Sequence record: OZ346212.1
Reading direction: 5' to 3' (one strand)
Source of the DNA: a phage
DNA length: 64,000 nucleotides
The position numbers were made by a program, and so were the translations under genes. The notes below the pieces were generated by a model. That model saw only the letters and a list, made by a program, of their open reading frames with translations. It was not told the DNA's origin and searched no databases. Below are positions 16,744-35,944 of this stretch, piece by piece (positions within the stretch are counted from its first letter, which is position 1; each line of letters opens with the position of its first letter).

Positions 16744-16989
16744 CTATAGCTCCACTAGCAAAGTGCTTTCAAAGTGACGTTCATGCAGACCGTTGTAAGG
16801 GACCACTTCCACAACGCCATCACGGACATATGGGGCCATCATGGTGGTATAATCTCCAAACGGGTTGGTATTGTCACTAACCACAACCACCTTCTGCCCT
16901 TCCTTGGCAGAGTGCCAAATAGATCTGCACTTCATCAGGTGTTCGAGAGCCCCAGGTAAAATTTTGTTACGTTCTTTACGGGTCTTCAT
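16744..16989 (-). CDS. hypothetical protein (81 aa)
   Basis: ORF with SD AAGGAG upstream. Confidence 0.6.
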   Translation of the reverse strand: MKTRKERNKILPGALEHLMKCRSIWHSAKEGQKVVVVSDNTNPFGDYTTMMAPYVRDGVVEVVPYNGLHERHFESTLLVEL

Positions 16990-17435: not shown

Positions 17436-17451
17436 GGCTCTCTCCTTTTTG

Positions 17452-17688
17452 TTAATCTTCGTAAATCAGGATTTCTGCTTTAGGTTTTCGTGCTTTCATG
17501 TCCAGCTCTATCCAGTGCACCATAGCTGTTTCAAGAAAAACAGCCTGGATGCATCCGTCCTCAGCAGCGTGTCCTAGCAGCATAACAAGATCTTCTCCTT
17601 CGTCATCTGCACCACGAACATACAGAATCTCCCCGGGTTCAAAATCTTTAACAACCTGATTGTTGGATAATTTACGAATTTTCGCCAT
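17452..17688 (-). CDS. small protein, member 4 of tandem paralog array (78 aa)
   Basis: Shares the PGE..V....DDEG...V..L...WIELDMK pattern with the three upstream 87-aa genes. Confidence 0.6.
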   Translation of the reverse strand: MAKIRKLSNNQVVKDFEPGEILYVRGADDEGEDLVMLLGHAAEDGCIQAVFLETAMVHWIELDMKARKPKAEILIYED

Positions 17689-17689
17689 A

Positions 17690-17953
17690 TTAGAAACCCT
17701 CTAAAAAGCTCTTGTAGAAAATAATTTCAGTATCTACACCAGTCACGATCTTATCGTTCCTGATTTCATCTGTAAGGTAGGTGTCAAAACGCAGAACCTG
17801 TGTGGTGTTGTCACACATCCACTCAGCTGTGACCATTGCGAAAATCTTAGCATCTTCATTATCTGGTGTGAATGTTACCACCTCACCGCACTTAAACTTT
17901 TCGATAGGCTGAGTGTTAGCTTTCGGTTCTGCGATAGTGATTTTTGTGGTCAT
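17690..17953 (-). CDS. small protein, member 3 of tandem paralog array (87 aa)
   Basis: SD GGAGGAG; motif F.CGEVV...IVTGVDTEIIFY parallels the neighbours. Confidence 0.65.
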   Translation of the reverse strand: MTTKITIAEPKANTQPIEKFKCGEVVTFTPDNEDAKIFAMVTAEWMCDNTTQVLRFDTYLTDEIRNDKIVTGVDTEIIFYKSFLEGF

Positions 17954-18216
17954 TATTCTCCTCCTTCTTTTGAATAGCTTGTCTCTCCAAGGATGGTAAT
18001 TTTGGTGTCAAGCTCTGTAACTTTCATGTTTGGCGGCAGATCGTACAACTCATTATTTTCTAAATCGAACCCCCACACACAATGTTCTCCTGTTTTGACA
18101 ATCATAACTATGTTTTGAATGCCGTCTCCGTCGCAACTTACCACAGTCCCACACGGAAAGCTGTCTGCACGCTTTTTGTTCTTCACCTTAGAATTGAATA
18201 CAATGCTGGTAGCCAT
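17953..18216 (-). CDS. small protein, member 2 of tandem paralog array (87 aa)
   Basis: SD GGAGGA; CGTVVSCDGDG...VTELDTKITILGE aligns with 18216..18479 product. Confidence 0.65.
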   Translation of the reverse strand: MATSIVFNSKVKNKKRADSFPCGTVVSCDGDGIQNIVMIVKTGEHCVWGFDLENNELYDLPPNMKVTELDTKITILGETSYSKEGGE

Positions 18217-18479
18217 TATTGTTCCTCCACCATAACTTCGCCAATAATTTCTATGCAGGCATCCATTTCTGTAACAACCAAACTGTGAGGTAGTTCTACA
18301 AACACCTTTCTGAACAGGTCAAATACCCCAACATATATGTTTGCAGGATGTGATTTTACAACAAGTGCTGTATTCACATCCCCAAGTTCATCAACAAACA
18401 TCACCACAGTGCCTGGAGCTACTGAGGACAGATACTTCTTAGTTTTACGGTTTGATGCAAATTTTAACTCTGTTGCCAT
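18216..18479 (-). CDS. small protein, member 1 of tandem paralog array (87 aa)
   Basis: SD GAGGAGG; PGTVVMFVDELGD...VTEMDACIEIIGE. Confidence 0.65.
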   Translation of the reverse strand: MATELKFASNRKTKKYLSSVAPGTVVMFVDELGDVNTALVVKSHPANIYVGVFDLFRKVFVELPHSLVVTEMDACIEIIGEVMVEEQ

Positions 18480-18494
18480 AAATAACCTCCTCTC

Positions 18495-19955
18495 TTACTT
18501 AGCGTACTCGATTAATTCCACAGTTTTACCAAAGCTCGGGATATAATTTTTATTATACCCCTCAGTGAGGACCCATAGAGTATCGTACTTTTTCCACTTG
18601 TTGTCAACAACCTTTTGTTCAAAGTTATGCTCAAAGTATAGGTCGGTCAGGACGATGACATCTTTTGCATTAGGTATGTTGGCATCCAGATACTCGAACA
18701 CGCAAGCAGCTGTTGTGCCCCATGTTGAGTGGACCTCATAGTTGATCATCTCGTCTATGTTGCCGCGAGTGTATACTTTAACCTCTCCAACCTCAGTTGA
18801 CCAACAGAACATTGTAACCTTAAACTCTTTATACAGATTGCACAATCCGGTGATTTCATTGAACATTTTCTTTAAAGTTCTTTGAGAGATCGAGCCAGAA
18901 ACGTCTAAAGCCACCACAATATCTATAGTGTTTTCCGGATTACGACCAGGAACAATAACGTGCTGGTTCTTGTTTATAGCCCCAACTTTTCGCATTGTGC
19001 TGGTCAAAGACCCAGATCGGCGACCAGGTTTTCTGTAGGTCAGTTCGGCCTTTCTTTTAGACAACATACGTTGCTTAATGATGTCTATATAGTTGATTAC
19101 AGGCTTACCTCTGTTCTTGACAAACTCACGCACCGCCTCAGGGCAACGGCCTCCGGACGCTTGCATTGCTGCCTCCAGCATATCACCAGAGTCCTGCATG
19201 GCCTGATCTTTATCAGATTGGCTGATTACAGGTTGTGGCTGATCATACCCCATAGCCTTTCCAAGATTATCACTGGTGCCACCGTTCCCACTCATGTGAT
19301 CATCGGTTTGTCGCTTATCACTTTGAGAGTTCTCACCTTTACCGTTCTTACTTTTACCGTTATTCTGATCTCTTTGCTTATCAAGAACTGCATAAACGTT
19401 CTCAGCAATCCATCCATGAAACTTCATGTCGCAGTAGCAGCTGGCTAAGAAGCCAAAAGGCTTACCTTTCATGAACGTAGTGCTTTTCCCCTTCGGGAAG
19501 AAAACACAAGGGGGTTTGCTAAAGTCAACCACAAGGCCTGTGTTGATAACGTGATCACAAGCAATATTGAACAGTTCCGGCTCAAAGCTTTTACCACGGA
19601 CTAGGTGATCACAGATAATATGCCCCACCTCATGTGACAGAAGGAAGGCCACCTCTTTCACAGATTTTGGGGAATAGAAAACTTCAGCCATCTCAAACTG
19701 CTCGTCAGTTAGAGAAGCCTTAAGAATAGCCTTGCGCTCATCAGCCAATCCCATAATGAACTCAGGACTGTAATAGATGCGTTTATGGTCGGTTGCCATG
19801 GTGGAGCACCATGTGTGGTTTTCTACGAACTGCAACCCTGACAGTAGTGTGCCATAAAACGGCAGCTTTTCAAGGAGATACATACGTGCAGCCTGCAACA
19901 TTCTCAGGGCATCATCTTTCTGCGAGGCAATGATTTCTGAACTTCTGCTATCCAT
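18495..19955 (-). CDS. metallopeptidase-like / von Willebrand factor A domain protein (about 486 aa)
   Basis: HExxH zinc-metallopeptidase-like motif (HEVGHIICDH) in N-terminal half; MIDAS-type VWA motif (VVALDVSGS) in C-terminal half; start set to ATG 19955 (SD GGAG) because ATG 19976 lies in the loop of a hairpin. Confidence 0.7.
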   Translation of the reverse strand: MDSRSSEIIASQKDDALRMLQAARMYLLEKLPFYGTLLSGLQFVENHTWCSTMATDHKRIYYSPEFIMGLADERKAILKASLTDEQFEMAEVFYSPKSVKEVAFLLSHEVGHIICDHLVRGKSFEPELFNIACDHVINTGLVVDFSKPPCVFFPKGKSTTFMKGKPFGFLASCYCDMKFHGWIAENVYAVLDKQRDQNNGKSKNGKGENSQSDKRQTDDHMSGNGGTSDNLGKAMGYDQPQPVISQSDKDQAMQDSGDMLEAAMQASGGRCPEAVREFVKNRGKPVINYIDIIKQRMLSKRKAELTYRKPGRRSGSLTSTMRKVGAINKNQHVIVPGRNPENTIDIVVALDVSGSISQRTLKKMFNEITGLCNLYKEFKVTMFCWSTEVGEVKVYTRGNIDEMINYEVHSTWGTTAACVFEYLDANIPNAKDVIVLTDLYFEHNFEQKVVDNKWKKYDTLWVLTEGYNKNYIPSFGKTVELIEYAK

Positions 19956-19968
19956 TAAAACTCCAGAA

Positions 19969-19983
19969 GGGGCCATCGGCCCC
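19969..19983 (-). terminator. hairpin between - strand genes, possible terminator/attenuator
   Basis: GGGGCC-atc-GGCCCC, followed on the - strand by U-rich ttctggagtttta. Confidence 0.35.
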
Positions 19984-19988
19984 TGTCA

Positions 19989-21029
19989 TTATTTAACGTG
20001 TTTGAAAATACCTGCCAACTCGGTCATTGTCATGCGGGTGGTCTTCATAAGATCTGTCATAGCTTTCTCCATAATTGGAGATACTACCATAAAGTTTCCT
20101 TTAGTGAAACCTTTATTCCAGTCGGTCACCAACAGGGGTTTAAGTCCAGCTCCAAGACGTTCACCAGTTAAAGCACAGCATTTGCGAATATACGAACTCT
20201 TAAATTGGCTGAACGACAGATCAACTTTCATACCTACATCGTAGAACGTTTGACAATAGAAAGTGTAAGCTTTGGCAATCTCAACATCATCAGGTAGTGC
20301 AGGAACCTCTTCTGTAAGCTCCTCTTCGACCTCCTGAGTCTCTTTTTCCTCTTCATGCACCTGTTGCGTCATTTCTTCAATCTCTTCTGTGATAGGCTCG
20401 TTTACAATGTCGGAAATGTGCTTCTTGGGTGCACGATAAGTAACTTTAGACATCGGTAGCATATCTTCCTCCTCTTCTTCGTCAAAGAGTGCTAGTTTAT
20501 CCTCTTCCGTTCCATATTGCAAGATGAAATCTTCAAAAGTATAATCACCTTTCAATTTCTCCATACGCTCTTCGCTCAGGTGGAGCATCATCTGCTGGAC
20601 AATTTTTCGATCAGTTTCGTCTTTAATCAAGACTGCAGTCTTTTTATCTACCAGACAGTCCTTTAGAGAGTTGCATCTCAATCCCACCACACAACAGTTA
20701 TCAACCGCATAAGGACCTTCATCATCTATCCGCTCCAGAGATGGGTAGAAAGGATTCCCCAGCCCGTTTTCATCTGTGTGCATGTCAAAAGGTATAAGGG
20801 TATAGTCGCATACTCCATCTCCTAAAAGTTTTTTACCAAATAGGAGGTATTCTTCCCATGACAGGTCGAACTCTATATCTCGTTTCCGTGCGTTATTCTG
20901 TTTGCGTCTATATTTTTTGAGCAAGCGCTCTAACTCTTCTGGTGTATAATATTTTTCAAGATTCATGAGTCGTCTCTCGTGCTCTGTAAGTGAAGAAATC
21001 GTATCAATTGTCTCAACAGATGTCAACAT
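19989..21029 (-). CDS. hypothetical protein with two related Cys-containing domains and an acidic linker (346 aa)
   Basis: ATG 21029 preferred over TTG 21032; internal duplication (...PSLERIDDEGPYAVDNCCVVGLRCN... and ...CCALTGERL...NFMVVSP...); internal ATG sits in a 29-bp repeat shared with 22292..22320. Confidence 0.6.
   Translation of the reverse strand: MLTSVETIDTISSLTEHERRLMNLEKYYTPEELERLLKKYRRKQNNARKRDIEFDLSWEEYLLFGKKLLGDGVCDYTLIPFDMHTDENGLGNPFYPSLERIDDEGPYAVDNCCVVGLRCNSLKDCLVDKKTAVLIKDETDRKIVQQMMLHLSEERMEKLKGDYTFEDFILQYGTEEDKLALFDEEEEEDMLPMSKVTYRAPKKHISDIVNEPITEEIEEMTQQVHEEEKETQEVEEELTEEVPALPDDVEIAKAYTFYCQTFYDVGMKVDLSFSQFKSSYIRKCCALTGERLGAGLKPLLVTDWNKGFTKGNFMVVSPIMEKAMTDLMKTTRMTMTELAGIFKHVK
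20431..20459. repeat. 29-bp sequence identical (inverted) to 22292..22320, includes an ATG
   Basis: Reverse complement of 20431..20459 = TACCGATGTCTAAAGTTACTTATCGTGCA = 22292..22320. Confidence 0.8.
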
Positions 21030-21039
21030 CAAAAACGTG

Positions 21040-21068
21040 TTGACTTTACTCTAACTCCACAATATAGT
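21040..21068 (+). promoter_or_regulatory. sigma70-like promoter (TTGACT-N17-TATAGT)
   Basis: Hexamers at 21040 and 21063 in the divergent intergenic region upstream of 21109. Confidence 0.55.
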
Positions 21069-21108
21069 GCACCCATTCGAAAGAAAACTAACATAGGAGC
21101 ACTTACTT

Positions 21109-22008
21109 ATGGCAAATCTTAACAGTTTTAGTACGCGGTGGAAACAGGACATAACAACCAATCTTTCAGCTGGGGACATCCTTTCTGCAATTTACGAGGC
21201 TTTAGATGATAAAGCTACTTCAAAAGCGGTTTGTACCAACCCATTAATTCCTATAGTGATGAAGGTTATTGAGCGTAGATTGGTATCTGGGTCTGATAAG
21301 TGGACATATTTAGATAATGAAGGACACACCTATTCCAATGGGTATGTCGATATAAAAGTAGAATACGCGGTATCATACCGCCGGAGCGGTTCTGTAACTT
21401 TCAACTTCTCTGGAGGTTTTCGATCTCTGGCTACCTCACCTTTTGTTTCCTCAGAGGAGAAGTATGAGCTGCCATTTCTTTGGATGATGGCTAACGCGAC
21501 AGGAAAAACCCCCGTTAGCATCCGAGTAAAATACAACTACAACGGATCTAGTAAGATCTATGCCGAAAGTGTCTCAGCAAGTTTTTATTTTGTGATGGGG
21601 GATGGAATCCTCAAACATATAAAGATGTGCGATATGCATGATGTTATAAATGAAGTGACTGATAAGAATGTTCTAGTGAAAGACCTCAACAATTTTTATA
21701 CACCTGGAGACTATTACGTCAGCCGTCCACTGTGCATCTTTAATGCCGCACACCCTCTAGGTGAGTATTTGATCGCCAATAGCGATATTGCCAATAACCG
21801 CTTCGAGGTAGCAAGAGTTCAGAATGAGGTATTGACATCTTGCAAGAGCGGTGATAAGTTTACCGAAGAAGAGATGGGTGTTTTAGAAATGATGGGATAT
21901 AAGTGTAGCCTTTGGGTAGATGAGGTGTTTAATGATTGCATCTATGGACAGGATATTTACCCATTAAAGAAGTATACTGATACAAGTTTAATTTATGCGA
22001 GGGTTTGA
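21109..22008 (+). CDS. hypothetical protein (299 aa)
   Basis: ORF with SD AGGAG 9 nt upstream. Confidence 0.65.
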   Translation: MANLNSFSTRWKQDITTNLSAGDILSAIYEALDDKATSKAVCTNPLIPIVMKVIERRLVSGSDKWTYLDNEGHTYSNGYVDIKVEYAVSYRRSGSVTFNFSGGFRSLATSPFVSSEEKYELPFLWMMANATGKTPVSIRVKYNYNGSSKIYAESVSASFYFVMGDGILKHIKMCDMHDVINEVTDKNVLVKDLNNFYTPGDYYVSRPLCIFNAAHPLGEYLIANSDIANNRFEVARVQNEVLTSCKSGDKFTEEEMGVLEMMGYKCSLWVDEVFNDCIYGQDIYPLKKYTDTSLIYARV

Positions 22009-22283
22009 CTATGATGAAGGCATGTGGTAATGTATATTACGTCGGTGAACATGTTCAGGCAGACAGTGTGTGGAAATCTATTAAGTCCACCACTGACGAT
22101 GCCCTTCTGAGTGGACTATGTTTCCCCAATCCGGGAGACATCCTCCCTCATCCTGGAGATTTTGTTGTCAACAAGATGGACGGTTATACCGTGTGCCTGA
22201 TGGTTGAAAAAATCTTTTTAGACACTAGACACAATCACCGTCTTGTGTTAAAATTTCAAGAATGTAAAATGACAATTGCCTAA
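22005..22283 (+). CDS. hypothetical protein (92 aa)
   Basis: ORF overlapping upstream stop (ATGA), SD GAGGG. Confidence 0.6.
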   Translation: MTMMKACGNVYYVGEHVQADSVWKSIKSTTDDALLSGLCFPNPGDILPHPGDFVVNKMDGYTVCLMVEKIFLDTRHNHRLVLKFQECKMTIA

Positions 22284-22291
22284 GGAGACCT

Positions 22292-22320
22292 TACCGATGT
22301 CTAAAGTTACTTATCGTGCA
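22292..22320. repeat. 29-bp repeat copy spanning the start codon of gene 22297..22653
   Basis: Identical to the reverse complement of 20431..20459. Confidence 0.8.
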
Positions 22321-22653
22321 GCTATTTACTGCAATGAACACCCAATCAATAATGATGGTCACTGCCTTTTTAAAGAAAATCAATTGGGCTGTATTGTCCT
22401 CCCTGATGAAGGGGAAGGTTATCTGATTGCATTGACAGGGTTTGAACCTGAGGCTCTGGAAGCCAATCTGGACTACCTGGTAGAAGAGGGTGCTGCAGAC
22501 CTGGTTGCCAATGGCCTCTCCATAAGCCTTGACGAAGTAGAGCGCTTCATGGGCAATTACCGTGTAGTGCGTGAGTTTACTATCGAGGTGGAAACTCCCG
22601 AGTGGAGTAGCCATGAAACTAATGCCGAAGAAAAAGAAGAGGAGGTAGAATAA
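22297..22653 (+). CDS. hypothetical acidic protein (118 aa)
   Basis: ATG 22297 with SD AAGGAG at 22282 preferred over track start 22276; N-terminus MSKVTYRA. Confidence 0.6.
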   Translation: MSKVTYRAAIYCNEHPINNDGHCLFKENQLGCIVLPDEGEGYLIALTGFEPEALEANLDYLVEEGAADLVANGLSISLDEVERFMGNYRVVREFTIEVETPEWSSHETNAEEKEEEVE

Positions 22654-22910
22654 TGAAAGTGCAGATCTTGACTAATGCCGAGAAGATGTTTATTGAAGAT
22701 ACACCTTTTGAAGCTGGTGAGCTACAGTTCGTTTATTTTGTTGACTTAGATAAGGTGTTTCCTGCACTGAATCTAGGTTTGGATGAAGTTCCTCATAAGG
22801 TTTTGTGCCAAGTTGTTCGTGCCTTAGCGGCAGAGGGGGAGTTCCACACCCTTCAAGATGTCCAGACCTACGGGTATCTTGAACTACAACGAGAAGAAGA
22901 GGTGGACTGA
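22653..22910 (+). CDS. hypothetical protein (85 aa)
   Basis: SD GAGGAGG upstream, start overlaps previous stop. Confidence 0.6.
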   Translation: MKVQILTNAEKMFIEDTPFEAGELQFVYFVDLDKVFPALNLGLDEVPHKVLCQVVRALAAEGEFHTLQDVQTYGYLELQREEEVD

Positions 22911-22912
22911 TA

Positions 22913-23293
22913 ATGGCTCAGTGGAAGACGACAGTTGACCTTCATGATCAGTGGTTAGGACGCATCACTGAAGACGGGAAGCTAGTGGAGTGGGACAATA
23001 AGCATGTTAGCGAGTTGGCAAGTATTGTGGCTGGCAAGTTACGCTCCAAGTTCCCTGAACAACTGGATCCTGATAGTTCAAAGTTCGATCCTGAGTTGGA
23101 GGATGTTGTATACTACTTCGATACCGTGGATGACTACGATGCGTGGTTTGCAGCACGGGAGCTTTACCCACAAGGCTCTGCTATGCGCCAGATGGAAGAA
23201 GATTATCCTCCGTGTGAGCAATTCAATAGTGCAATGACTTGCCTCTATGATTGGGCAGATAAGAACCTTGTCTGGATTCGGACTGCATTTTAG
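22913..23293 (+). CDS. hypothetical protein (126 aa)
   Basis: ORF with SD GAGGTGG upstream. Confidence 0.6.
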   Translation: MAQWKTTVDLHDQWLGRITEDGKLVEWDNKHVSELASIVAGKLRSKFPEQLDPDSSKFDPELEDVVYYFDTVDDYDAWFAARELYPQGSAMRQMEEDYPPCEQFNSAMTCLYDWADKNLVWIRTAF

Positions 23294-23337
23294 TGGGCAG
23301 GAATGGCGGCAAGGATGCCGCTTAAGGAGTAGTAGAG

Positions 23338-23607
23338 ATGTTATACCAGCAATATGAACTTCGTGCAGAAAAAGAGTTAAATTTTGACAAAGATATTCAC
23401 AGATATTATTATGGGAAAGTTAGAGGGCAAGCAAGAAAGTGTACTCCAACACTCTTTTATGCCAGCAGACGACTAGCGCCAGAAGAGGCAACAGCAGAAA
23501 GGGTTGCGTACAACTGGAGAGTCACGTATGATATTGACAGATTCGATGTGATATCTGTTTTGGAAAACTTTGAAAACACTTACACACAAGTAGAGGACTT
23601 TTACTAA
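23338..23607 (+). CDS. hypothetical protein (89 aa)
   Basis: ORF with SD AAGGAG upstream. Confidence 0.6.
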   Translation: MLYQQYELRAEKELNFDKDIHRYYYGKVRGQARKCTPTLFYASRRLAPEEATAERVAYNWRVTYDIDRFDVISVLENFENTYTQVEDFY

Positions 23608-24791
23608 TGTCAAGAAACGTATTCGAAAGTGGTCAAATCACTGTCCGTGAGTTGCCAGCTATTATTCAGTTTGCCCAACGTCATAGCCGATCTGTCCTAA
23701 TTTTGGGACCAATGGGTGTGGGTAAAAGCCAGGTGATGAAGCAGATCGCTGATAATATGTTCGGTGAGCGAGATGACAACCTTGTTGACGTGCGACTGTC
23801 AGATAAAGATCCTGCCGACTTATCTGGGCTACCTATCCCTGTAGAAGCGGATGGAACTACACGTACAGTGTTTGCAATTCCAGAATTTTGGCCTGCGGAT
23901 CCTGACTGGAGCGGAATTATCTTTCTGGATGAGCTCACTCATGCAGATAACTACCTGCAAAAGGTTGCAATGCAAATTATGCTTGACCACAAGTGCGGCA
24001 CCTATGCATTCCCTAAGGGTTCTGTTTTTGTGGCTGCGGGTAACCGTTCTACAGATGGTGCGGTTCTTTCGGCGCTCGAAGCCCCTCTGGCTAACCGTTT
24101 TATCATTGTAGAGGTTACAAGCAATGCAGAGGTGTTTATTGAGGACTACGCATTCCTCAACGGGGTTCACTCCTCTGTAATTGGGTATCTGAAAAGAGTT
24201 CCATCAGCTATTGATAATTATGAGGCTATGGCTGAGATTAATTGTCCATCTTTTGCCACACCACGATCTTGGGTTGCTGCATCTGACATCTTGCACGATT
24301 TTGACAGCGGTATTATTTCTGACGCTATGGCCCGTGTTCTTCTGCAAGGTGCTATTGGTCACACTGCAGCGGTAGAGATCTGGACATACCACACCAAGAA
24401 ACGCAATTTACCGGAAATCGGTCGGATTATGGCAGGTGGCTGCAAAGAATACGTAGGCCCTAAGCAGCCAGACATTTTGTGGATTCTTGGATCTGAAGGT
24501 TGTATCGCTATTCGTAATATGATGGAAAATGCAAGTATCTCAGACGAAGATCTTGTCAGCTGTGTGGCAAACTTCCTCGATTTCCTTTGGGAAAACTTCA
24601 AGGACGAGAACCGAGATTTTGTATTCTCAGTCTTTATGGCGATGATGAAACCTAATGCCTTAGGAAATGCCTTGCTTATCGGTAAAGGGCGTGACAAGAT
24701 TGTTGCTCAGCTGATCAAAGCATACCCAAACCTGATGAAGATTGTAAAAGAGTTTGGTGAAGAGTTTAGCGCCATTTTGGCTAAAGCTTAA
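23607..24791 (+). CDS. MoxR-like AAA+ ATPase (394 aa)
   Basis: Walker A GPMGVGKS and Walker B IIFLDELTHA; size and layout typical of MoxR/AAA_5 ATPases. Confidence 0.75.
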   Translation: MSRNVFESGQITVRELPAIIQFAQRHSRSVLILGPMGVGKSQVMKQIADNMFGERDDNLVDVRLSDKDPADLSGLPIPVEADGTTRTVFAIPEFWPADPDWSGIIFLDELTHADNYLQKVAMQIMLDHKCGTYAFPKGSVFVAAGNRSTDGAVLSALEAPLANRFIIVEVTSNAEVFIEDYAFLNGVHSSVIGYLKRVPSAIDNYEAMAEINCPSFATPRSWVAASDILHDFDSGIISDAMARVLLQGAIGHTAAVEIWTYHTKKRNLPEIGRIMAGGCKEYVGPKQPDILWILGSEGCIAIRNMMENASISDEDLVSCVANFLDFLWENFKDENRDFVFSVFMAMMKPNALGNALLIGKGRDKIVAQLIKAYPNLMKIVKEFGEEFSAILAKA

Positions 24792-24801
24792 GGGGGGTTG
24801 T

Positions 24802-25182
24802 ATGGCTAAAGTAGGTAAGCGGGGAAACTACCTGGTGGTATTGACCGAGGAGCCGGAGAAGGAGTACGAATGCAGCTCCACTTGCGTGATCGATATCCGA
24901 GAAAAAGATGTAGATGAAATCTGGTTTAAAATATTGGACGCTTGCGATAGCAGTGATTATTTCTTCATTTATGTCAACGATAAGGCTGGATTCTTCCATG
25001 ACGACGGAGAGTTGCCGTATGAAATCTATGAACTTGTAGAGGCTTGCCATCGTGGAGATGCGGAGTTGTTTGGCCTACGGCTGAAAAGCGGTAAATTCTT
25101 CTATCAAGATGAGTGCATGAATCTTCATAACTTTGTAGAGGGAACTTGCAACGATGGAGAGATTTTGGCACACTACGATTAA
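24802..25182 (+). CDS. hypothetical protein (126 aa)
   Basis: ATG 24802 with SD GGGGGG preferred over track start 24754, which overlaps the upstream gene. Confidence 0.6.
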   Translation: MAKVGKRGNYLVVLTEEPEKEYECSSTCVIDIREKDVDEIWFKILDACDSSDYFFIYVNDKAGFFHDDGELPYEIYELVEACHRGDAELFGLRLKSGKFFYQDECMNLHNFVEGTCNDGEILAHYD

Positions 25183-25194
25183 TTTCTAAGACCT

Positions 25195-25222
25195 CCCCCG
25201 CTTCGGCGGGGATTTTCTATTT
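25195..25222 (+). terminator. rho-independent terminator
   Basis: CCCCGC-ttcg-GCGGGG followed by ATTTTCTATTT. Confidence 0.65.
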
Positions 25223-25231
25223 GGAGTCATT

Positions 25232-25732
25232 GTGAAAATTAAGATCTTTGCTATTATTTTGAGCGCACTTTTATCGCTGCCTGTTGTTGCAGCACCAAAA
25301 CAAAAAGTATATCATACTTGCAAGCCCTCAGATACTAAGGAAAACATTCTGGCATGCAATATCTACAGGGAGGCTAGAGGGGATGGCACGATGGGTATGC
25401 TGGCATCAGGGTTTGCCACACTAAACAGGAAATCTCACCCCAAATACCCAGACACTATAAGAAAGATTGTCTACCAACCTAACCAGTTTTCGTGGACAAA
25501 CCACGGCAAAACTTTTAAGGTGACAGAAAAAGATTCATGGGATCACGCTAAAAGTCTTGCAAAGATGCTTCTAAAGGTCTATAATAACAACCATGTTGCA
25601 TACATGGCTATGGACATAACAGGTGGAGCAACACACTACCATACAACCAAAGTACGACCGAAATGGGCAAAAAAGATGCAGAGGACAGCTCAATTCGGGA
25701 GTCATATCTACTACAAGGAGCGCAATAAATGA
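25232..25732 (+). CDS. secreted SleB-like cell wall hydrolase (166 aa, GTG start)
   Basis: N-terminal signal-peptide-like segment (KIFAIILSALLSLPVVAAP); core NIYREARGDG...LNR...YPDTIRKIVYQPNQFSW matches the SleB-type lytic hydrolase pattern. Confidence 0.7.
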   Translation: MKIKIFAIILSALLSLPVVAAPKQKVYHTCKPSDTKENILACNIYREARGDGTMGMLASGFATLNRKSHPKYPDTIRKIVYQPNQFSWTNHGKTFKVTEKDSWDHAKSLAKMLLKVYNNNHVAYMAMDITGGATHYHTTKVRPKWAKKMQRTAQFGSHIYYKERNK

Positions 25733-26274
25733 TTGTAAACAGTAATGAAACTAAAGCAGTACTAACCGGAAATATGGAGGTCACCAGGGGCTCAATTTCT
25801 CTGAACAAAGAGACTTTTGGGCTAATCATTAAAGGGATTTACGAAGATAAGGTGCTGGCAAGCTGCCGTGAACCAATCTTCAATGCTGTGGACTCCCATG
25901 TTGAGTCTGGACGGGGTGATGTACCGATCATCATTCACTCTCCTACAGACCTTGAACCATACTTCTTTGTGCAGGACGTTGGATTGGGCATGTCGGAAGA
26001 GATGGTCCGCAACACTTTCATGAACCTCGGGGAGTCAACCAAGCGCAACAGCAACGCTCTGGTAGGTAATAAAGGTGTAGGTTCAAAGGCCCCGTTCAGC
26101 ATGGTGGACACTTTCGATGTGATCAGTGTGCCATACCAACACAACAGTGCTAAGTGCCGTGCATGCCGCTACGAAATAGTAGCAGCACCGGAATCACGCA
26201 AAGATGGCGATCCGATTGAATACGTAGTTGACCGTGATGGTAACATCATCGACATTATCTACGAGGAGGCGTAA
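25729..26274 (+). CDS. small GHKL-fold (HATPase_c-like) ATP-binding protein (181 aa)
   Basis: Bergerat-fold motifs in canonical order: N-box EPIFNAVDSH, G1 VQDVGLGM, G2 GNKGVGSKA; SD AAGGAG. Confidence 0.55.
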   Translation: MIVNSNETKAVLTGNMEVTRGSISLNKETFGLIIKGIYEDKVLASCREPIFNAVDSHVESGRGDVPIIIHSPTDLEPYFFVQDVGLGMSEEMVRNTFMNLGESTKRNSNALVGNKGVGSKAPFSMVDTFDVISVPYQHNSAKCRACRYEIVAAPESRKDGDPIEYVVDRDGNIIDIIYEEA

Positions 26275-27644
26275 TGGAAAAAGGGCAGTATGACGTAGGC
26301 ACAGATGCTGCCCTCATTGCAATCATGAGTGGTGAGAATGTCTTCGTTTCAGGACCTGCAGGTTGTGGGAAGACGTATCTCATCAACATGATCCAGTCAA
26401 TGTATGGAGACTCTTGCATAACGGTTGCCCCGACAGGGGTAGCCGCTTTAAACGTTAATGGAGCAACAGCACACCGAACATTCGATCTTGCAGCAGGTGT
26501 GAGCATGGAGTCGGACTGGACCGCAATAAGGGCAAAAACAGCAAAGCCTTTGAAAAGCAAGGCATTTACCATCCTAATTATCGATGAAATCTCTATGATC
26601 CGTGCTGATAAGTTTATAGAGATGGATAGGAAACTCCGCTTCCTTCGAAAAAATGACAAACCTTTCGGAGGCATACAGGTCATATTGTTTGGCGATTTTT
26701 ACCAGGCACCTCCTGTTGTCTCTTCTATGGAGAAGGAAGCCTACTTCAACTTCTACCATACGGACCTGTGTTGCTACACCGAATCTTGGAAAGAGCTTGA
26801 CCTCCACAACATAGCCCTAATAGATCAGTTCCGACAGGAGTCTATTCGATTTGCCACAATGCTTAACTGTGTTCGTGAGGGTCGTCGCATAAAAGAGGTT
26901 GTAGCAGAACTTAATGCTCGCTGTTACAAAGGTGGTGTACCAACAGATGCTCTCACAATTTGCGCCACCAACAAACAAGCAGAGGAAGTAAACAGAAGGT
27001 TCTATGATGCCATCAACGCCCCAGAGAAGGTATACACTGGTGAAATGAAGGGTAAGTTTCCCTCCACCCTGCCAGTTGAGCAGGAGATGAAGTTGAAAAT
27101 TGGCATGAAAGTTATGATAACCGCCAACGATGTTGACCCGACGCACAAAGTACCTTATTATGTTAACGGAACACGTGCCACAATTGTTAAATTTAAGAAC
27201 AAGGCGGTGGTGGTAGAGCTTGAAGATGGAACACAGGTTGACATAGAGCAGAGGTTGTGGGAGAATAACGAGTATAAGCCCTCTCAGAGATACAACATTG
27301 CAGAAAGGAAGATGGAGAAGTTTATAGAGAGGGTAGTGATTGGGTCATACAAGCAACTTCCTCTGAAATCTGGGTACGCCGTAACATCTCATAAAAGTCA
27401 AGGACTTACGCTAGATTGTTACAACCTAGACCTTGGAAAGAACGGAGCTTTCTCTCCTGGGATGACGTATGTCGCTTTGAGTAGAGTTAAGACAATACAA
27501 GGAATAAACTTGTTGCGTCCCCTAAGAGAAGTTGACATTATTGTTGACCCGCGAGTAGTAGAGTTTTACAATACAACATTCCCTGACTTAGACAAAATTG
27601 TCAGGAAAGATTTTGAAACCAGAGCAGAAGAGGGGGACGTATGA
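26274..27644 (+). CDS. Dda/Pif1/RecD-like SF1 DNA helicase (456 aa)
   Basis: Walker A GPAGCGKT, motif II IIDEISM, ...ILFGDFYQAPPV..., C-terminal ...SHKSQGLT... Confidence 0.85.
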   Translation: MEKGQYDVGTDAALIAIMSGENVFVSGPAGCGKTYLINMIQSMYGDSCITVAPTGVAALNVNGATAHRTFDLAAGVSMESDWTAIRAKTAKPLKSKAFTILIIDEISMIRADKFIEMDRKLRFLRKNDKPFGGIQVILFGDFYQAPPVVSSMEKEAYFNFYHTDLCCYTESWKELDLHNIALIDQFRQESIRFATMLNCVREGRRIKEVVAELNARCYKGGVPTDALTICATNKQAEEVNRRFYDAINAPEKVYTGEMKGKFPSTLPVEQEMKLKIGMKVMITANDVDPTHKVPYYVNGTRATIVKFKNKAVVVELEDGTQVDIEQRLWENNEYKPSQRYNIAERKMEKFIERVVIGSYKQLPLKSGYAVTSHKSQGLTLDCYNLDLGKNGAFSPGMTYVALSRVKTIQGINLLRPLREVDIIVDPRVVEFYNTTFPDLDKIVRKDFETRAEEGDV

Positions 27645-27982
27645 GTTTGTGGAGAAATATCGTTAACTACGTGTGTGGCAATCCGACTCCTGAAGAGAAG
27701 GATGTTGTGATTCACGATTTTACTAAAAGATCTCGTGAAAAAGATCTACTGCTAACAAAGGTGACTGATAAAGATCCTGCAGTAGGGGACTGGGCAGGTT
27801 TTGCGTTTACATCGGACAAATACACCTTTAACAAAGGTGACTACCTTGTTGTGGATTTTAACGAAGACATTGAGGGTGCTGAACCTTACTATCAAACCCT
27901 TATTGTTGCAGGGTGTGTTAATCTCTCTGCAGGTATGCACAGTTTGATTCTTTTTGAGCTTGACTCTGAAGACCTTGAGTAG
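27641..27982 (+). CDS. hypothetical protein (113 aa)
   Basis: ORF overlapping upstream stop, SD GAGGGGG. Confidence 0.6.
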   Translation: MSLWRNIVNYVCGNPTPEEKDVVIHDFTKRSREKDLLLTKVTDKDPAVGDWAGFAFTSDKYTFNKGDYLVVDFNEDIEGAEPYYQTLIVAGCVNLSAGMHSLILFELDSEDLE

Positions 27983-28043
27983 TAAGATGTGAGTATAAAG
28001 GGGAGGCACTCCTCCCCACAAAAACTAAGGAGAGCACCAAACG

Positions 28044-29369
28044 ATGAGTAAAACCAAATTAGAACTAACCTGGATAGGTAAAAACGAGCGCAAAAAGTTA
28101 GAGCCGCACATTTTGTTAGAAGATTCTAGCAAGTCTTACCACAGCCAGAAAGTGACCGAAAACGATATTTTTGATAATAAACTGATTTTTGGAGATAACT
28201 TATTAGCATTGAAGGCGCTAGAGCAAGAGTATGCAGGCAAAGTGAAGTGTGTTTACATAGACCCGCCATTCAATACCGGGAGGGCTTTTGAGCACTACGA
28301 TGATAGCCTGGAGCATTCCATTTGGCTGGGCTTAATGAGGGATAGGTTAGAAATAATTCGTAATCTTCTAAGTGATGATGGGGTAATATTCGTTCACTTA
28401 GATGATTGCGAAATGGCGTATTTAAAAGTTTTGATGGACGAGATTTTTGGTCGTGCAAATCAGTTAAATACCATATCGATGACCACAAATTCCCCTTCGG
28501 GATTTAAGGCAACAGGAGCCACAGTTTTCTCCACAGCAAACTTTTTGCTTGTATATGCAAAAGATCGCACCCAGAAACCGCTTAATAAAATCTATATACC
28601 TAAAGGGTACGATACAGGATATAACAAATACCTATTAAACCCGGATGACCATTATAAAAATTGGACGTGGTGCAGTATTGCCGATGCGTTTGCAAAGGCC
28701 AATGGCTATAAGGATGCAAAAGAAGCCAAGAAAAAACTGCCTGACACATTCGATGATGAATTAGCACAATTCGCAATTGATAATGCAGAACGTGTATTTC
28801 AATCTGTTGCAATTGGTGGTGGTGCTAAAATAAAGAGAAAAGAAACTATCGAGAAGTCAAAGAAAGATAGGGATAAGGTTTATGTACATCCAAATGAGGA
28901 TGTTGAAGGATTTTATATCGCAAATGGTAGGCAAATGGTCTTTTACTCCAATAGGCTTTTGGAAATTGACGGTGAGATGCAACCTGCGGAACTAATAACT
29001 GATGTTTGGACAGACATTAGTTGGAATGGAATAGCAAATGAAGGCGGCGTTAGTTTCAAAAATGGGAAAAAACCAGAAGCGCTTTTGAAGCGGATTTTCG
29101 AAATGTGTACGCGAGAAGGCGATTTGGTATTGGATTCATTCGGTGGTTCGGGAACTACTGCTGCTGTAGCTCACAAGATGAAAAGACGTTGGATCTCAAT
29201 CGAGCTAGGTGATCATTGTCATACCCATATTATTCCGCGCTTAGAAAAAGTGATCGATGGCGAAGATCAAGGTGGTATTTCTAAGTCTGTAAGCTGGCAA
29301 GGTGGTGGTGGCTTCCGTTATTACAAACTCACCCCGGCCTTAGTTGCGAAAGATAAGTCTGATCAATAA
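28044..29369 (+). CDS. DNA methyltransferase, N6-adenine/N4-cytosine class, beta-type motif order (441 aa)
   Basis: Catalytic motif IV IDPPFNTG precedes AdoMet motif I LDSFGGSGTT; SD AAGGAGAG. Confidence 0.8.
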   Translation: MSKTKLELTWIGKNERKKLEPHILLEDSSKSYHSQKVTENDIFDNKLIFGDNLLALKALEQEYAGKVKCVYIDPPFNTGRAFEHYDDSLEHSIWLGLMRDRLEIIRNLLSDDGVIFVHLDDCEMAYLKVLMDEIFGRANQLNTISMTTNSPSGFKATGATVFSTANFLLVYAKDRTQKPLNKIYIPKGYDTGYNKYLLNPDDHYKNWTWCSIADAFAKANGYKDAKEAKKKLPDTFDDELAQFAIDNAERVFQSVAIGGGAKIKRKETIEKSKKDRDKVYVHPNEDVEGFYIANGRQMVFYSNRLLEIDGEMQPAELITDVWTDISWNGIANEGGVSFKNGKKPEALLKRIFEMCTREGDLVLDSFGGSGTTAAVAHKMKRRWISIELGDHCHTHIIPRLEKVIDGEDQGGISKSVSWQGGGGFRYYKLTPALVAKDKSDQ

Positions 29370-33520: not shown

Positions 33521-35944
33521 ATGAGCATGTGGTCGTTCGACTTTGAGTCATCCGGTTTGCTGGAAGACCCAGATCTTTATTATCACTGCGGCCTGTTTAA
33601 AGAGCTGAATAAGAACCGTTTTATGCTGTTCCTTCCTCTAAATGACCGCACACACTACTCCGAGGAGGATATAGAAAAGGCTAAGAACTTCATTCTGGCA
33701 AAGAAAACTCTTTATAAAGATTTTGAAGTTCGCATAGCAGATTTTTCAGAGTTGGAAGGTTGGCTTACAGGAAATTCTGACTGGTCACCAACAGCTTTGA
33801 ACTGCCATAACTGCTACAGTTATGACTTTATGCTGATGGAAAGATTATCTGGTATTCATTTTGATATGTTCCGTGATCCTAAGTGTATGGGGACTATCAA
33901 CGATCACCAGGTTAACCTGTTTGATACGTTGGCGATGAGCCGAATCTTGTGGCCTGATCGCCCTTTACCAAAAGGTTGTCCGGACTCTGTATTCAACCCG
34001 GTTACTAAGAAAATGCAGCCTGTTGGTCCTCACGGCCTTATGGCATGGGGCTACGCCCTTGGTAACCAGAAAGTTCAAATTGATGACTGGCGCGATCTTC
34101 CGTTATGGAAGTATGTGGATCGTGTATTTGAGGACGTTATCATCCAGGAGCTGCTCTGGAAAGAGCTGGTAGCGGAATCAAAAGGTGTATTCTACGGCAA
34201 ATCTGACATGCAGAACTTTATGTACGATCCTGCCAAAGAGAAGCCGAAAGGGTTCAAGAAGATCACCTGGAAGAACGCATTACGTCGAGGCATGTTGCAG
34301 CACTTCCTGATGGAGCTGCAGGCCCGTCAGGGTGTATACTTCGACATAGATGGGGCTATTGCTTTACGTGACCGCTGCGATGCGTGGATGAAAGAGATCG
34401 CTGATCGTGTTGAACCACAACTGCCTTTAAAAGAGCTGTCAATGTCTCAGCGGCCCAAGTTCCCTGAAAAGCCGTTTAACCAAGATGGGACAATCTCTAA
34501 TAATGGTTGGAAATGGTTAAAAGATAAGCTTGGCTATCCTGTGGACATGAGTGCTTTAGAGTTCAAAGCCCCACCTAAGCGAGCATTTACCTCTACAGGA
34601 GATGTCAGTAAGATGGGGATAAAATGGTGTGAAGAGATGGGCTGCAAAGACCACGATAAGATGGCTGATTTCTTGAGAGGTTATATTAAGGGCACCTCCA
34701 CACCACAACCTTTACCTAAAGAGCTGATGGATCAGGCAATAAGCGATCTGCAACAGAAGCGAATGCCTGACTGCAAGATACCTATGAAAATCAGCAATCA
34801 GGACGACATTAAGCGATACCTGATCAGTGCTGGTTGGCTTCCGACAATGTGGAGAACTAAGGATGTAACTAAGGACAGCAAGAAGAAAGCTCTACCTGAT
34901 GCAGATGTTGATGCACGAGTATATGCATACATGGACGAGCTTTTAGAGTCAGAGTATTGTGACCTAATTATCAACTTCTGGAACAAAACTGATGCTAAGT
35001 TTCAGACAACAGTGCACAAGTTCCGAAGCTTTCCTAACTCCGAAAGGATTAAAAAGGAAGTGTTCGGGAAAATACGCAGAAAAGCCAGGGCACTTATTAC
35101 TTCTCCGCAACTGAAAGATACGTTTGGACACCTATGTCCGAATCTTGAAAAATTGAACGGAGAGATGGCTAAAGATATCGTCTTGTGGTTATCATTGCGA
35201 AACCGCAGATCGGTCCTTGATCCAATCAAGGAGGATAAGGTTGATACTGGTCTTCTTAATCACCCACGTTTGAAGATTGACCATAAGCTTCCTGCTAAAA
35301 GCTCTGGATTAACAAACACTTCCCGACAGAAACACAGTATTTGTGCAAACATGCCTAAACCATCTCCTAAAGTGGTTATGGGTAAAGAGATGCGTAGCTT
35401 GTGGGGTGTTCCTCCTGGATACTTTGAGATCGGTATTGACGGGTCCAACTTAGAGCAGCTTATCGGGGCTTGGGGTGCCTTTGAGTTCGACAACGGCTTG
35501 TACTATGATGTTGTAAGTAACGGGGACGCACACCAAAACAATGCTGAGGCATATACAAAAGTAGCAGGCAGAGAGGTGTCTCGTAACGACGGTAAACCTA
35601 TCACGTATGGGGTTATGTACGGGGCACAAAAAGATAAAGTTGCAGATATGCTGGATATCTCCCCAGAGTTGGGGCAAAGGGTGATCGATGCACTTTGGGA
35701 TGCCAACCCAGGTCTTAAGGGGCGCAAAGAGGATCTGGAGAAATTCTGGGAAGCAACAGGTAAGAAGTTTATCTACTCTTTTGATGGTCATGCTATCTGG
35801 ACCCGATCTAAACACTCTTTACTTAATGCATACCAACAAAATGGCGGCGCATCGTTGTGTGACTTAGTTGGGATACTCATGCACCATCAAATGGTGAAGC
35901 GTGGGTGGTACGATGAAGGTGTTCGTCGTATTATCTATTACCAT
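33521..35944 (+). CDS. DNA polymerase, family A, exon 1 (exo domain through motif B)
   Basis: Exo I SFDFES; motif A ...EIGIDGSNLEQL...; motif B ...RNDGKPITYGVMYGA...; the ORF reaches a stop 2 codons after the proposed 5' splice site and lacks motif C. Confidence 0.8.

Follow-up and report, generated by a model that had tools for sequence, protein, structure and literature searches.

Comparison of sequences and of a predicted structure confirms that positions 25232-25732 of the window (the whole stretch of 64,000 nucleotides of phage DNA analysed here, from sequence record OZ346212.1) hold a genuine gene, the product of which is an SleB-like wall hydrolase with predicted export. The hydrolase is probably not the principal endolysin of the phage but a second wall enzyme; the role that we favour, and would put at slightly better than even, is that of a holin-independent accessory periplasmic lytic transglycosylase, made at low level in the early or middle phase and coupled to rIIA. 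Among the three functions that a preliminary description of this DNA had offered (the endolysin, wall remodelling and superinfection), the first is the least probable. Earlier work covers the gene and its family, the signal peptide and the unusual position, and databases already carry a name for the gene: rV5 gp2 has been called "cell wall hydrolase" since 2013, and a 2020 paper described the signal peptide and conservation in all Vequintavirinae genera (PMC7344957). Our finding is correct but ordinary, and adds little to existing descriptions.

The window belongs to a Vequintavirus and shares 99.85% identity with phage naswa across its first 26 kb. Sequence comparison identifies the hydrolase as the orthologue of gp2 of rV5, of the rV5-type E. 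coli phages; the gene shows 0 nt differences from naswa_94, and at least 116 phage records carry it at 95% identity or more. The 166-aa open reading frame lies on the + strand exactly where the preliminary description had placed it, starts with GTG, and contains all of the SleB-type motifs quoted there (NIYREARGDG, LNR and QFSW). The features of the gene and its product are:

25232..25732, + strand: hydrolase gene (166-aa precursor, Hydrolase_2, SleB/CwlJ-type), from profile, fold and comparison with naswa
25222..25225, + strand: Shine-Dalgarno sequence GGAG, 6 nt 5' of the GTG start, from the sequence
25232..25291, + strand: predicted Sec signal peptide, aa 1-20, MKIKIFAIILSALLSLPVVA, with cleavage before A21, rule-based
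25319..25720, + strand: catalytic domain (about aa 30-163), from the AF2 model, DSSP, Foldseek and the stretch matched by TIGR02869
25370..25372, + strand: codon GAG of Glu47, putative catalytic residue in the motif Y-R-E-A-R-G-D, from alignment with SleB structures

Assignment to the SleB-type family is borne out by profile, fold, motif and comparative evidence, all of which agree. Pfam Hydrolase_2 (PF07486) matches the hydrolase with 70.4 bits (gathering score, 27; E=2.1e-19) over profile positions 2-100 of 100; PHROG 938 matches with E=1.6e-27; and a phmmer search of the PDB returns only the SleB catalytic domains 4F55 (E=2e-6) and 4FET (E=2e-5). The HMM search that could have refuted the family leads to Hydrolase_2 and to no unrelated family. 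A word-indexed homologue search gave 10 proteins, which sufficed for a confident structure model but were too few for family statistics; these were taken from a full HMMER scan, in which the set of Hydrolase_2-like homologues is large (11,355 clusters at E<=0.001), and motif and signal counts were made on the 150 best cluster representatives. The AlphaFold (AF2) model has a mean pLDDT of 88.9, and the only significant PDB matches in Foldseek are again 4F55 and 4FET (probability 1.00; TM 0.73-0.78 normalised to the target; rmsd 2.7 A for 4FET).

Our alignments point to Glu47 as the catalytic residue: its counterpart in 4F55 and 4FET is the first E of YGESRGE, and it is conserved in at least 90% of aligned homologues; the surrounding Y-x-E-[AS]-R-G motif is present in 142 of the 150 representatives; and little or no variation is seen among homologues at the QFSWT, D128, T130 and G132 positions. 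The hydrolase has just two cysteines, Cys30 and Cys42, which flank the helix bearing this Glu in the AF2 model; the closest orthologues keep both, in line with a periplasmic location. The precursor has a mass of 19 kDa, and the mature form, of about 17 kDa, would be very basic (pI about 10).

The hydrolase is not SleB proper. Against the NCBIfam equivalog profile of the spore cortex-lytic enzyme (TIGR02869) it scores 48.3 bits, below the cut-off of 236.5, with a match confined to profile positions 82-201 of 201 and hydrolase residues 30-162; the Pfam scan yields Hydrolase_2 only, with no N-terminal PG_binding_1 domain, residues 1-29 being the predicted signal peptide and a short Lys-rich linker; and there is no YpeB-type partner, the gene 3' of the hydrolase being rIIA (a remnant here) and no conserved partner appearing across the lineages inspected.

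We infer that the hydrolase most likely cuts the glycan strands of peptidoglycan via Glu47 as a lytic transglycosylase. Bacillus SleB is specific for cortex peptidoglycan and needs muramic delta-lactam, which E. coli murein does not contain, so that activity of the hydrolase on the host wall is an assumption. The same cortex specificity, together with the absence of published activity for phage members, could be taken to mean that the protein is an inactive or murein-binding relic on E. coli walls. We consider this extremely unlikely, given the (near) invariance of the catalytic Glu and of the other motif positions, the retention of the gene in so many phage records and unchanged from naswa, the size of the family, and the report that the Certrevirus orthologue CB7_83 is toxic when expressed in E. 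coli (data not shown in that paper; PMC7344957). For phage Hydrolase_2 biochemistry, T5.083 and CR3_087, the literature searched offers annotation-level statements only; on close orthologues it consists of this unpublished toxicity remark and a genome-note statement, "implicated in lysis".

The preliminary description had called the N-terminus signal-peptide-like, and it does have a typical Sec layout. The segment MKIKIFAIILSALLSLPVVAAPK combines a basic n-region, a hydrophobic core, Pro at −4 and a V-V-A|A site; in a rule-based reading it divides into MKIK, IFAIILSALLSL and PVVA|A, with V at −3 and A at −1, and the likely cleavage is predicted at VVA|AP. Its Kyte-Doolittle 19-mer value of 2.34 is the only strong one among the 13 genes at 21109-29369. 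By the same rules the layout recurs in seven orthologues; it is found with diverged sequence in PVP-SE1 gp243, Certrevirus F4M1E, three Stephanstirmvirinae and T5.083. A small-x-small site lies at equal distance in every orthologue inspected and, by a crude rule, in 108 of the 150 representatives; 108-131 of the 150 show signal-peptide architecture. A signal peptide has also been reported for CB7_83 (PMC7344957). These features predict that the hydrolase is exported and cleaved.

A different reading of the same segment is that of an uncleaved SAR domain, tethering inactive enzyme to the inner membrane until depolarisation. It draws on the Ala/Ser/Thr-rich N-termini (58-65%) of the PVP-SE1, F4M1E and T5 orthologues, as in SAR domains, and on the conserved cysteines around the catalytic-Glu helix, reminiscent of the disulfide caging used by P1 Lyz. 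The core in the hydrolase, however, is short (~12 residues) and rich in Leu/Ile, with 35% Ala/Ser, and together with Pro at −4 and V-x-A it makes a classical signal-peptidase-I layout that favours cleavage; the small-x-small site is kept as described above; and there is no pinholin nearby. We consider tethering very unlikely.

Cleavage and export, as predicted, place the hydrolase apart from the ordinary lysin of these phages. The naswa protein naswa_11, a lambda R homologue (PDB 1AM7, E=3e-56), is the same as the 156-aa LysECP26, an enzyme with muralytic activity in vitro that lyses Gram-negative cells after outer-membrane permeabilisation (PMC9728275); in rV5 it is gp89 that is named the lysin. 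The naswa lysin and a small membrane protein occupy 5.0-5.7 kb of that genome, and the spanin is found at 15.8 kb; the window includes neither locus. Because near-identical genomes carry this lambda-R-type lysin elsewhere, and the LysECP26 orthologue is muralytic, the hydrolase is probably not the main endolysin. Unlike a canonical holin-dependent endolysin, it has a signal-peptide-like segment and no lysis cassette nearby. [quoted passage not shown] Several unrelated large lytic phage groups keep a second wall enzyme, predicted to be Sec-exported, beside a normal endolysin.

The hydrolase might still be a true holin-independent endolysin or co-endolysin, exported by Sec, restrained in the periplasm and unleashed when a holin collapses the membrane potential. 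Such enzymes have precedents in Lys44, the signal-peptide endolysin of Oenococcus phage fOg44, and in SAR endolysins; the hydrolase is basic, like Gram-negative phage lysins; PHROG 938 and many records label it "endolysin"; CR3_087 is said to be implicated in host lysis; and the Certrevirus orthologue is overlapped at its 3' end by a holin candidate, a 65-aa protein with two transmembrane segments (PMC7344957). The labels, however, are automatic transfers and not tests; genomes of this type already have a proven lambda-R-type endolysin, just as T5 has both a Hydrolase_2 gene and a canonical lysin; no holin or pinholin adjoins the hydrolase here; and the gene belongs to the early/replication block, where its surroundings show no late-promoter motif. 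We regard this reading as unlikely. A virion-associated lysin was also considered and set aside, as gp2 does not appear in the portion of the rV5 virion proteome text consulted and a Sec signal fits packaging poorly.

The surroundings of the gene agree with the preliminary description in part. The position in an early/replication block behind its own terminator stands, and no holin-like or structural gene is found beside the hydrolase; among the 13 neighbouring genes at 21109-29369 there is no membrane protein (holin, pinholin). The downstream "GHKL ATPase/helicase" as a separate operon does not stand: comparison with PHROG 612 and with naswa shows that the supposed ATPase is a remnant of rIIA fused to the end of rIIB and no independent ATPase. 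Nor is the hydrolase a unit apart from the downstream gene, as its stop overlaps the rIIA start and relatives keep the order hydrolase-rIIA-rIIB-helicase, with a MoxR-like ATPase upstream of the hydrolase. The features at the 3' side are:

25729..25732, + strand: ATGA overlap of the rIIA-remnant start and the hydrolase stop, from the sequence, and the same in naswa
25729..26274, + strand: in-frame fusion ORF of rIIA(1-134) and rIIB(last 47 aa), from PHROG 612 and comparison with naswa
26101..26131, + strand: deletion junction, a 31-nt imperfect repeat common to rIIA and rIIB, from comparison with naswa

Relative to naswa, a 2,653-nt deletion joins the first 134 rIIA codons in frame to the last 47 rIIB codons; the fusion ORF matches positions 1-134 of 725 of PHROG 612 (RIIA), both copies of the junction repeat encode MVD..DV.SV, and the crossover falls within exact AGTGTGC. 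This exact rIIA::rIIB fusion protein is not on record in public assemblies. Assuming correct assembly, the deletion means that rIIA and rIIB are dispensable for the phage, and offers a naturally occurring mutant in which a possible interaction between the hydrolase and rII could be studied. The naswa genome has the same ATGA overlap, with the end of naswa_94 at 75356 and the start of rIIA at 75353, and the overlap suggests translational coupling of the two genes.

Such coupling, with the order hydrolase-rIIA-rIIB kept also in Seunavirus, allows a non-lytic role for the hydrolase: superinfection exclusion, competition, or rII-linked envelope remodelling such as murein trimming against rival phages, or vesiculation. 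The early location, the persistence of the gene next to a canonical lysin in a number of unrelated phage groups, which argues for a non-redundant role, and an intact hydrolase with 0 nt changes from naswa although the rII genes are deleted in the window are all in line with it. Spackle, the T4 periplasmic exclusion factor, is by comparison an inhibitor and not an enzyme, and Certrevirus, Stephanstirmvirinae, T5 and Pakpunavirus all lack the link to rII; we hold such a role to be highly improbable. A conserved downstream partner, either inhibitor or holin, was rejected, since the gene 3' of the orthologues varies by lineage (rIIA, a 54-aa ORF, a 65-aa two-transmembrane protein, acidic 92-94-aa proteins, or a 56-aa ORF).

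The following sites bear on expression of the hydrolase:

25196..25221, + strand: intrinsic-terminator-like hairpin CCCCGC TTCG GCGGGG with T-rich tail, ATTTTCTATT, from the sequence and a terminator scan
21040..21068, + strand: sigma-70-like promoter TTGACT-17-TATAGT, from a consensus scan, heading the rightward block that contains the hydrolase
23384..23412, + strand: sigma-70-like site TTGACA-17-TATTAT, 11/12, the best of the region, a consensus match only

The upstream terminator described earlier was found again as a hairpin with T-run, 20 nt upstream of the hydrolase, in the gap that follows the upstream 127-aa gene (stop, 25182); related records carry a "terminator" annotation at this position, and similar hairpins lie 5' of the orthologues in the lineages inspected, except T5 and Aeromonas phage 4L372XY. 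The promoter at 21040..21068 faces a divergent promoter-like site on the other strand. The 23384..23412 site precedes the MoxR-like ATPase gene and could act as an internal promoter, the transcripts of which would meet the terminator at 25196. A promoter scan found none between the terminator and the hydrolase start; a promoter-like match at 25230-25257 lies inside the gene and cannot serve it; and the putative rV5 late-promoter-like motif TGGTAAAATA does not occur on the + strand of 12041-28822. Stephanstirmvirinae and Menderavirus have a sigma-70-like promoter after the terminator and use GTG or TTG starts; the Stephanstirmvirinae orthologues differ from the hydrolase here in having a promoter of their own. 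Given that the hydrolase stands directly behind a terminator and starts with GTG, it is probably a low-level product of read-through transcripts; the early or middle timing is read from the consensus scans.

These observations can be assembled into the favoured role of an accessory periplasmic lytic transglycosylase, as follows: a host-type promoter would drive the rightward early/middle block, in which the hydrolase would be the first cistron of hydrolase-rIIA-rIIB-helicase, translationally coupled to rIIA; read-through past the terminator and the GTG start would keep its level low; the Sec signal peptide would carry it to the periplasm without a holin; and there the mature single Hydrolase_2 domain would cut glycan strands via Glu47, nicking the sacculus from the periplasmic side during infection. 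Such accessory wall loosening may allow faster or more complete holin-triggered lysis, or cell enlargement, while the main lysis would be the work of the cytoplasmic lambda-R-type enzyme encoded elsewhere in the genome. Wall conditioning of this kind is the most economical of several options and, in our inference, the most likely. An early-exported, soluble and active muralytic enzyme might be expected to lyse cells prematurely; we propose that low dose and tolerance of E. coli to extra lytic transglycosylase activity prevent this, such tolerance being reported in a published study (PMC10139938).

More broadly, exported single-domain Hydrolase_2 enzymes may form a conserved class of early periplasmic effectors in large virulent Gram-negative phages (Vequintavirinae, Stephanstirmvirinae, T5-like and Pakpunavirus), kept beside the endolysin for a job other than terminal lysis, e.g. 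sacculus thinning or remodelling, and tied to rIIA/rIIB in rV5-like phages; we offer this as a tentative and rather doubtful generalisation. The role, once settled, should improve models of phage lysis and put an end to the routine mislabelling of this gene as "endolysin", and the hydrolase could provide a naturally periplasm-targeted lysin scaffold.

Compared with known systems, the hydrolase is closest to rV5 gp2, which matches it in length (166 aa), pI (10.0) and Pfam family and, as does naswa_94, occupies the same place upstream of rIIA and downstream of the MoxR-like ATPase; the "cell wall hydrolase SleB" genes of Vequintavirinae (CB7_83, CR3_087 and PVP-SE1 gp243) are the same gene. The gene itself is no different from these; only its downstream context is, as rIIA/rIIB are largely deleted here. 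The Hydrolase_2 proteins of T5 (T5.083), Stephanstirmvirinae and Pakpunavirus share 35-41% identity and the single-domain architecture with predicted export, and their genes are found not in a lysis cassette but in the company of early, nucleotide-metabolism or tRNA genes, in many cases preceded by a hairpin terminator, and have no link to rII; in PaoP5_032 the N-terminal membrane segment lacks a basic n-region. With the catalytic domain of Bacillus SleB (4F55, 4FET), a germination-specific lytic transglycosylase, the hydrolase has in common the fold, the Pfam family and the Y-x-E-[AS]-R-G-[ED] motif, whereas identity is only 21-24%, PG_binding_1 and a YpeB-like partner gene are missing, a Sec signal peptide for the Gram-negative periplasm is predicted, an extra helical insertion is present at about residues 100-127, and the substrate would have to be ordinary murein instead of delta-lactam cortex. 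The lambda R-type endolysins (LysECP26, rV5 gp89 and naswa_11) are likewise small, basic, single-domain and predicted MurNAc-GlcNAc cutters, but belong to an unrelated fold family (1AM7), are encoded at a different locus outside the window, and, having no signal peptide, depend on a holin. Sec-exported and SAR endolysins (fOg44 Lys44, P1 Lyz and phage 21 R) resemble the hydrolase in their N-terminal hydrophobic segment and holin-independent Sec export; each of them is the sole endolysin in a lysis cassette, whereas the hydrolase is a second enzyme in an early block, with an N-terminus that looks cleavable and not SAR-like.

We consider it likely that the SleB-like hydrolase of this phage is an exported Hydrolase_2 muralytic enzyme and not its principal endolysin. 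The gene lies where the preliminary description had placed it, and the observations made there on the hydrolase proved correct throughout, beyond chance. It and its immediate signals are as follows:

25196-25211: GC hairpin CCCCGC-TTCG-GCGGGG, 20 bases upstream of the hydrolase start, followed by ATTTTCTATT
25232-25732, + strand: hydrolase open reading frame, GTG start, 166 codons, GGAG six bases upstream of the start
25729-25732: ATGA overlap of the hydrolase stop codon and the start of the next open reading frame

As the next in-frame ATG is downstream of the catalytic motif, GTG is the sole start that yields a complete enzyme. The gene does have its own upstream terminator, as had been claimed: the hairpin was detected by a terminator scan, and a terminator is annotated at the same place in several related GenBank records.

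The window belongs to a Vequintavirus, an rV5-like myovirus of E. coli: megablast returned 122 related phage records, and the window is collinear with Escherichia phage naswa (MN850595), its position 1 corresponding to naswa 49623 and its first 26 kb being 99.85% identical. The hydrolase gene is identical in nucleotide sequence to naswa_94 (“cell wall hydrolase SleB”) and is already known, having been annotated since the rV5 genome, where it is gene 2 (“cell wall hydrolase, 166 aa, pI 10.0, PF07486” in the 2013 table; PMC3606486). By tblastn, the protein occurs at no less than 95% identity in 116 phage records, with more divergent forms in 1,124 additional records. Sixteen “Campylobacter phage” GenBank records (host Campylobacter jejuni; among them MG065635, MG065646, MG065654-56 and MG065666) share 99% identity with E. 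coli Vequintaviruses over the hydrolase region, and a further one, C3, matches Stephanstirmvirinae-type phages; either the host is apparently mislabelled in these records, or contaminants were sequenced as isolates. The window diverges most from naswa at 46024-53777, with several indels and unmatched gaps (e.g. 52623-52951 and 53458-53607); the 171 nt at 53607-53777 match naswa 109574-109406 in inverted orientation, near a repeat-containing naswa region with few annotated genes.

The SleB-type assignment is upheld by profile search: Pfam Hydrolase_2 matches over its whole profile (70.4 bits vs. a gathering score of 27, E=2e-19), PHROG 938 matches at E=1.6e-27, and no unrelated family appears. 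The only PDB sequences matched are the Bacillus SleB catalytic domains 4F55 and 4FET, the latter named a lytic transglycosylase by its depositors. An AlphaFold model built from ten homologues (mean pLDDT 88.9, core >94) gave significant Foldseek matches in the PDB to these two entries only (TM 0.73-0.78, normalised to target), all others having E>2. Glu47 of the Y-R-E-A-R-G-D motif corresponds in the alignment to the Glu in the YGESRGE motif of SleB, and a motif of this type is present in 142 of the best 150 of 11,355 related cluster representatives; that the protein is an inactive relic is, in our view, very improbable. It is not SleB itself: it matches only the C-terminal half of the NCBI SleB equivalog model, with 48 bits vs. 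236.5 required, and a Pfam scan found no peptidoglycan-binding domain in it. The same gene is variously named cell wall hydrolase, SleB, endolysin (from RefSeq re-annotations, T5.083 among them), lytic transglycosylase, spore cortex-lytic enzyme precursor and hypothetical protein. Two papers call the phage protein an N-acetylmuramyl-L-alanine amidase, whereas the solved SleB domain was deposited as a lytic transglycosylase; we regard the amidase name as an inherited database label in conflict with the structural entries.

By rule-based reading, the signal-peptide-like N-terminus noted earlier is built as a tripartite Sec signal peptide in residues 1-20 (MKIK / IFAIILSALLSL / PVVA): positions −4, −3 and −1 are occupied by Pro, Val and Ala, respectively, and cleavage one Ala later is disfavoured, since Pro would then fall at +1. 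No other strongly hydrophobic segment is present in the 13 genes at 21.1-29.4 kb. Our argument for a functional signal peptide is comparative: PVP-SE1 gp243, a Certrevirus orthologue (F4M1E), three Stephanstirmvirinae orthologues and T5.083 keep this architecture and a small-x-small end with different sequences, which predicts export. In the best 150 of the 11,355 clusters, an N-terminal hydrophobic core is found in 131, and 108 pass a crude rule for the three parts. Both cysteines, C30 and C42, are kept in the closest orthologues, as expected of a periplasmic disulfide. Such an N-terminus could possibly also act as an uncleaved signal anchor, but its core is short and rich in Leu/Ile and the layout of its cleavage site is conserved, both of which disfavour this, and a SAR-type tethered enzyme seems to us improbable. 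In 2020, Buttimer et al. already described a signal peptide in the Certrevirus orthologue CB7_83, its toxicity on expression in E. coli (as data not shown), Vequintavirinae-wide conservation and distance from the lysis genes (PMC7344957).

The hydrolase is probably not the principal endolysin, as a lambda-R-type lysin is present at a separate naswa locus. This 156-aa protein, encoded 5 kb from the left end of naswa and outside the window, is clearly homologous to lambda R (PDB 1AM7, E=3e-56) and adjoins a 68-aa membrane protein; the spanin genes adjoin terminase. Its counterpart rV5 gp89 was “an obvious lysin” to the rV5 authors, and LysECP26, the 156-aa counterpart from an rV5-like phage, lysed 29 of 29 tested Gram-negative strains (PMC9728275). 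Similar pairs are found elsewhere: an M15 peptidase and a SleB-like protein in Certrevirus CB7; an M15C endopeptidase and a SleB-like protein in Septuagintavirus; Phage_lysozyme and Hydrolase_2 proteins in Phapecoctavirus; the characterised endolysin gp146 and gp243 in PVP-SE1; and, in T5, an L-alanyl-D-glutamate peptidase endolysin and T5.083, which lies among early genes and tRNAs. As several unrelated phage groups keep both an exported Hydrolase_2 enzyme and a cytoplasmic endolysin, we infer that the former has a distinct, non-redundant role. That it is a holin-independent co-endolysin we think unlikely. The “two endolysins” puzzle has been raised repeatedly, including in a Salmonella phage paper that describes SleB-domain “endolysins far from holin” and does not decide which one is used (PMC11180984).

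The hydrolase block runs rightward from a divergent sigma-70-like promoter pair at ~21.0 kb (consensus scan), in the order MoxR-like ATPase, hydrolase, rIIA, rIIB, helicase, methylases, primase-helicase and DNA polymerase. Between the terminator and the hydrolase start codon there is neither room for a promoter nor a consensus match, and the putative rV5 late-promoter motif is absent from the + strand at 12.0-28.8 kb; the gene would thus most simply be expressed by terminator read-through, which, together with the GTG start, predicts a low dose. The best sigma-70-like match of the 9.5-kb scanned region is:

23384-23412: TTGACA-17-TATTAT, 11/12

It is located within a small open reading frame (23338-23607), shortly before the MoxR-like ATPase gene, and possibly serves as an internal promoter for the ATPase gene and the 127-aa gene, a pair that ends at the pre-hydrolase terminator. 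Seven inspected genomes have a GC-rich hairpin and T-run directly upstream of the orthologue:

L005, 3875-3904: Seunavirus PVP-SE1; TTG start as annotated at 3905
L006, 3807-3898: Stephanstirmvirinae; TTG start at 3899
L009, 3314-3398: Stephanstirmvirinae; TTG start at 3399
L010, 3299-3398: Stephanstirmvirinae; TTG start at 3399
L008, 3350-3398; L011, 3260-3323; L013, 3307-3398: Certrevirus, Pakpunavirus and Menderavirus

The inspected genomes of T5 and Aeromonas phage 4L372XY lack it. In the three Stephanstirmvirinae and Menderavirus, a near-consensus sigma-70-like promoter follows the hairpin (TTGCAA or TTGACA, 17 nt, then TACAAT, TAGAAT or TATACT), and the gene there seems to form a separate transcription unit for host polymerase. 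The non-ATG starts, GTG in Vequintavirus and TTG in the three Stephanstirmvirinae and, as annotated, in PVP-SE1, would fit deliberately weak translation of an exported enzyme that could be lethal; ATG is used in Certrevirus F4M1E, T5 and PaoP5.

We propose that the hydrolase, made at low dose, would be exported by Sec and cut at Ala20/Ala21, a prediction with strong comparative support; that it would form a C30-C42 disulfide as it folds in the periplasm; and that, by family analogy, Glu47 would cleave MurNAc-GlcNAc bonds non-hydrolytically. More speculatively, the sacculus might be partly nicked, with no lysis by the hydrolase alone, and so conditioned for the lysis that the lambda-R-type enzyme and spanins bring about once the holin has triggered. 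The main objection, premature lysis by an early exported enzyme, is removed insofar as one report describes E. coli as tolerant of raised lytic transglycosylase activity (PMC10139938). The specific conditioning role is a tentative suggestion; towards the whole statement, an exported muralytic non-endolysin with that role, we lean slightly. To a non-lytic periplasmic effector, e.g. an exclusion factor, we give little credence.

Further downstream, an insertion of ~0.8 kb absent from naswa splits the DNA polymerase gene:

33521-35950 and 36784-37140: DNA polymerase exon open reading frames
35935-36736: insertion
36085-36591: 168-aa HNH homing-endonuclease open reading frame in the insertion (PHROG 59, E=6.5e-38)

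Against the Rfam group I intron model, the insertion gives a full-length match of 39.1 bits (E=3.7e-8), under the gathering score of 50.

The hydrolase had been described as lying between two operons. It does lie between the MoxR-like ATPase and helicase genes, but not as a stand-alone gene; since the next open reading frame is an rIIA::rIIB remnant, it is the first cistron of the rII operon (hydrolase-rIIA-rIIB-helicase). The supposed GHKL ATPase (25729-26274, 181 aa) is rather the first 134 residues of rIIA fused in frame to the last 47 of rIIB. Naswa has the order hydrolase, rIIA (660 aa), rIIB (401 aa), helicase; Seunavirus PVP-SE1 has hydrolase, a 54-aa open reading frame, rIIA, rIIB and helicase, across the record ends; Certrevirus has no rII and, in its place, a 65-aa protein with two transmembrane segments. 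The window lacks 2,653 nt of naswa (75756-78408), a loss that takes away rIIB almost entirely and the greater part of rIIA:

26101-26131: deletion junction, a 31-nt imperfect repeat encoding MVD..DV.SV in rIIA and rIIB

The crossover falls within the exact stretch AGTGTGC, and the fusion keeps the native stop codon of rIIB, which overlaps the start of the helicase gene. No record among the 122 of related phages spans the junction or has the deletion, and the exact fusion protein has no record in a large gene collection of public assemblies. Unless the deletion is an assembly error, rII is dispensable for this phage. The classical rIIA-rIIB fusion deletion is r1589 of T4, and the fusion in the window resembles it.
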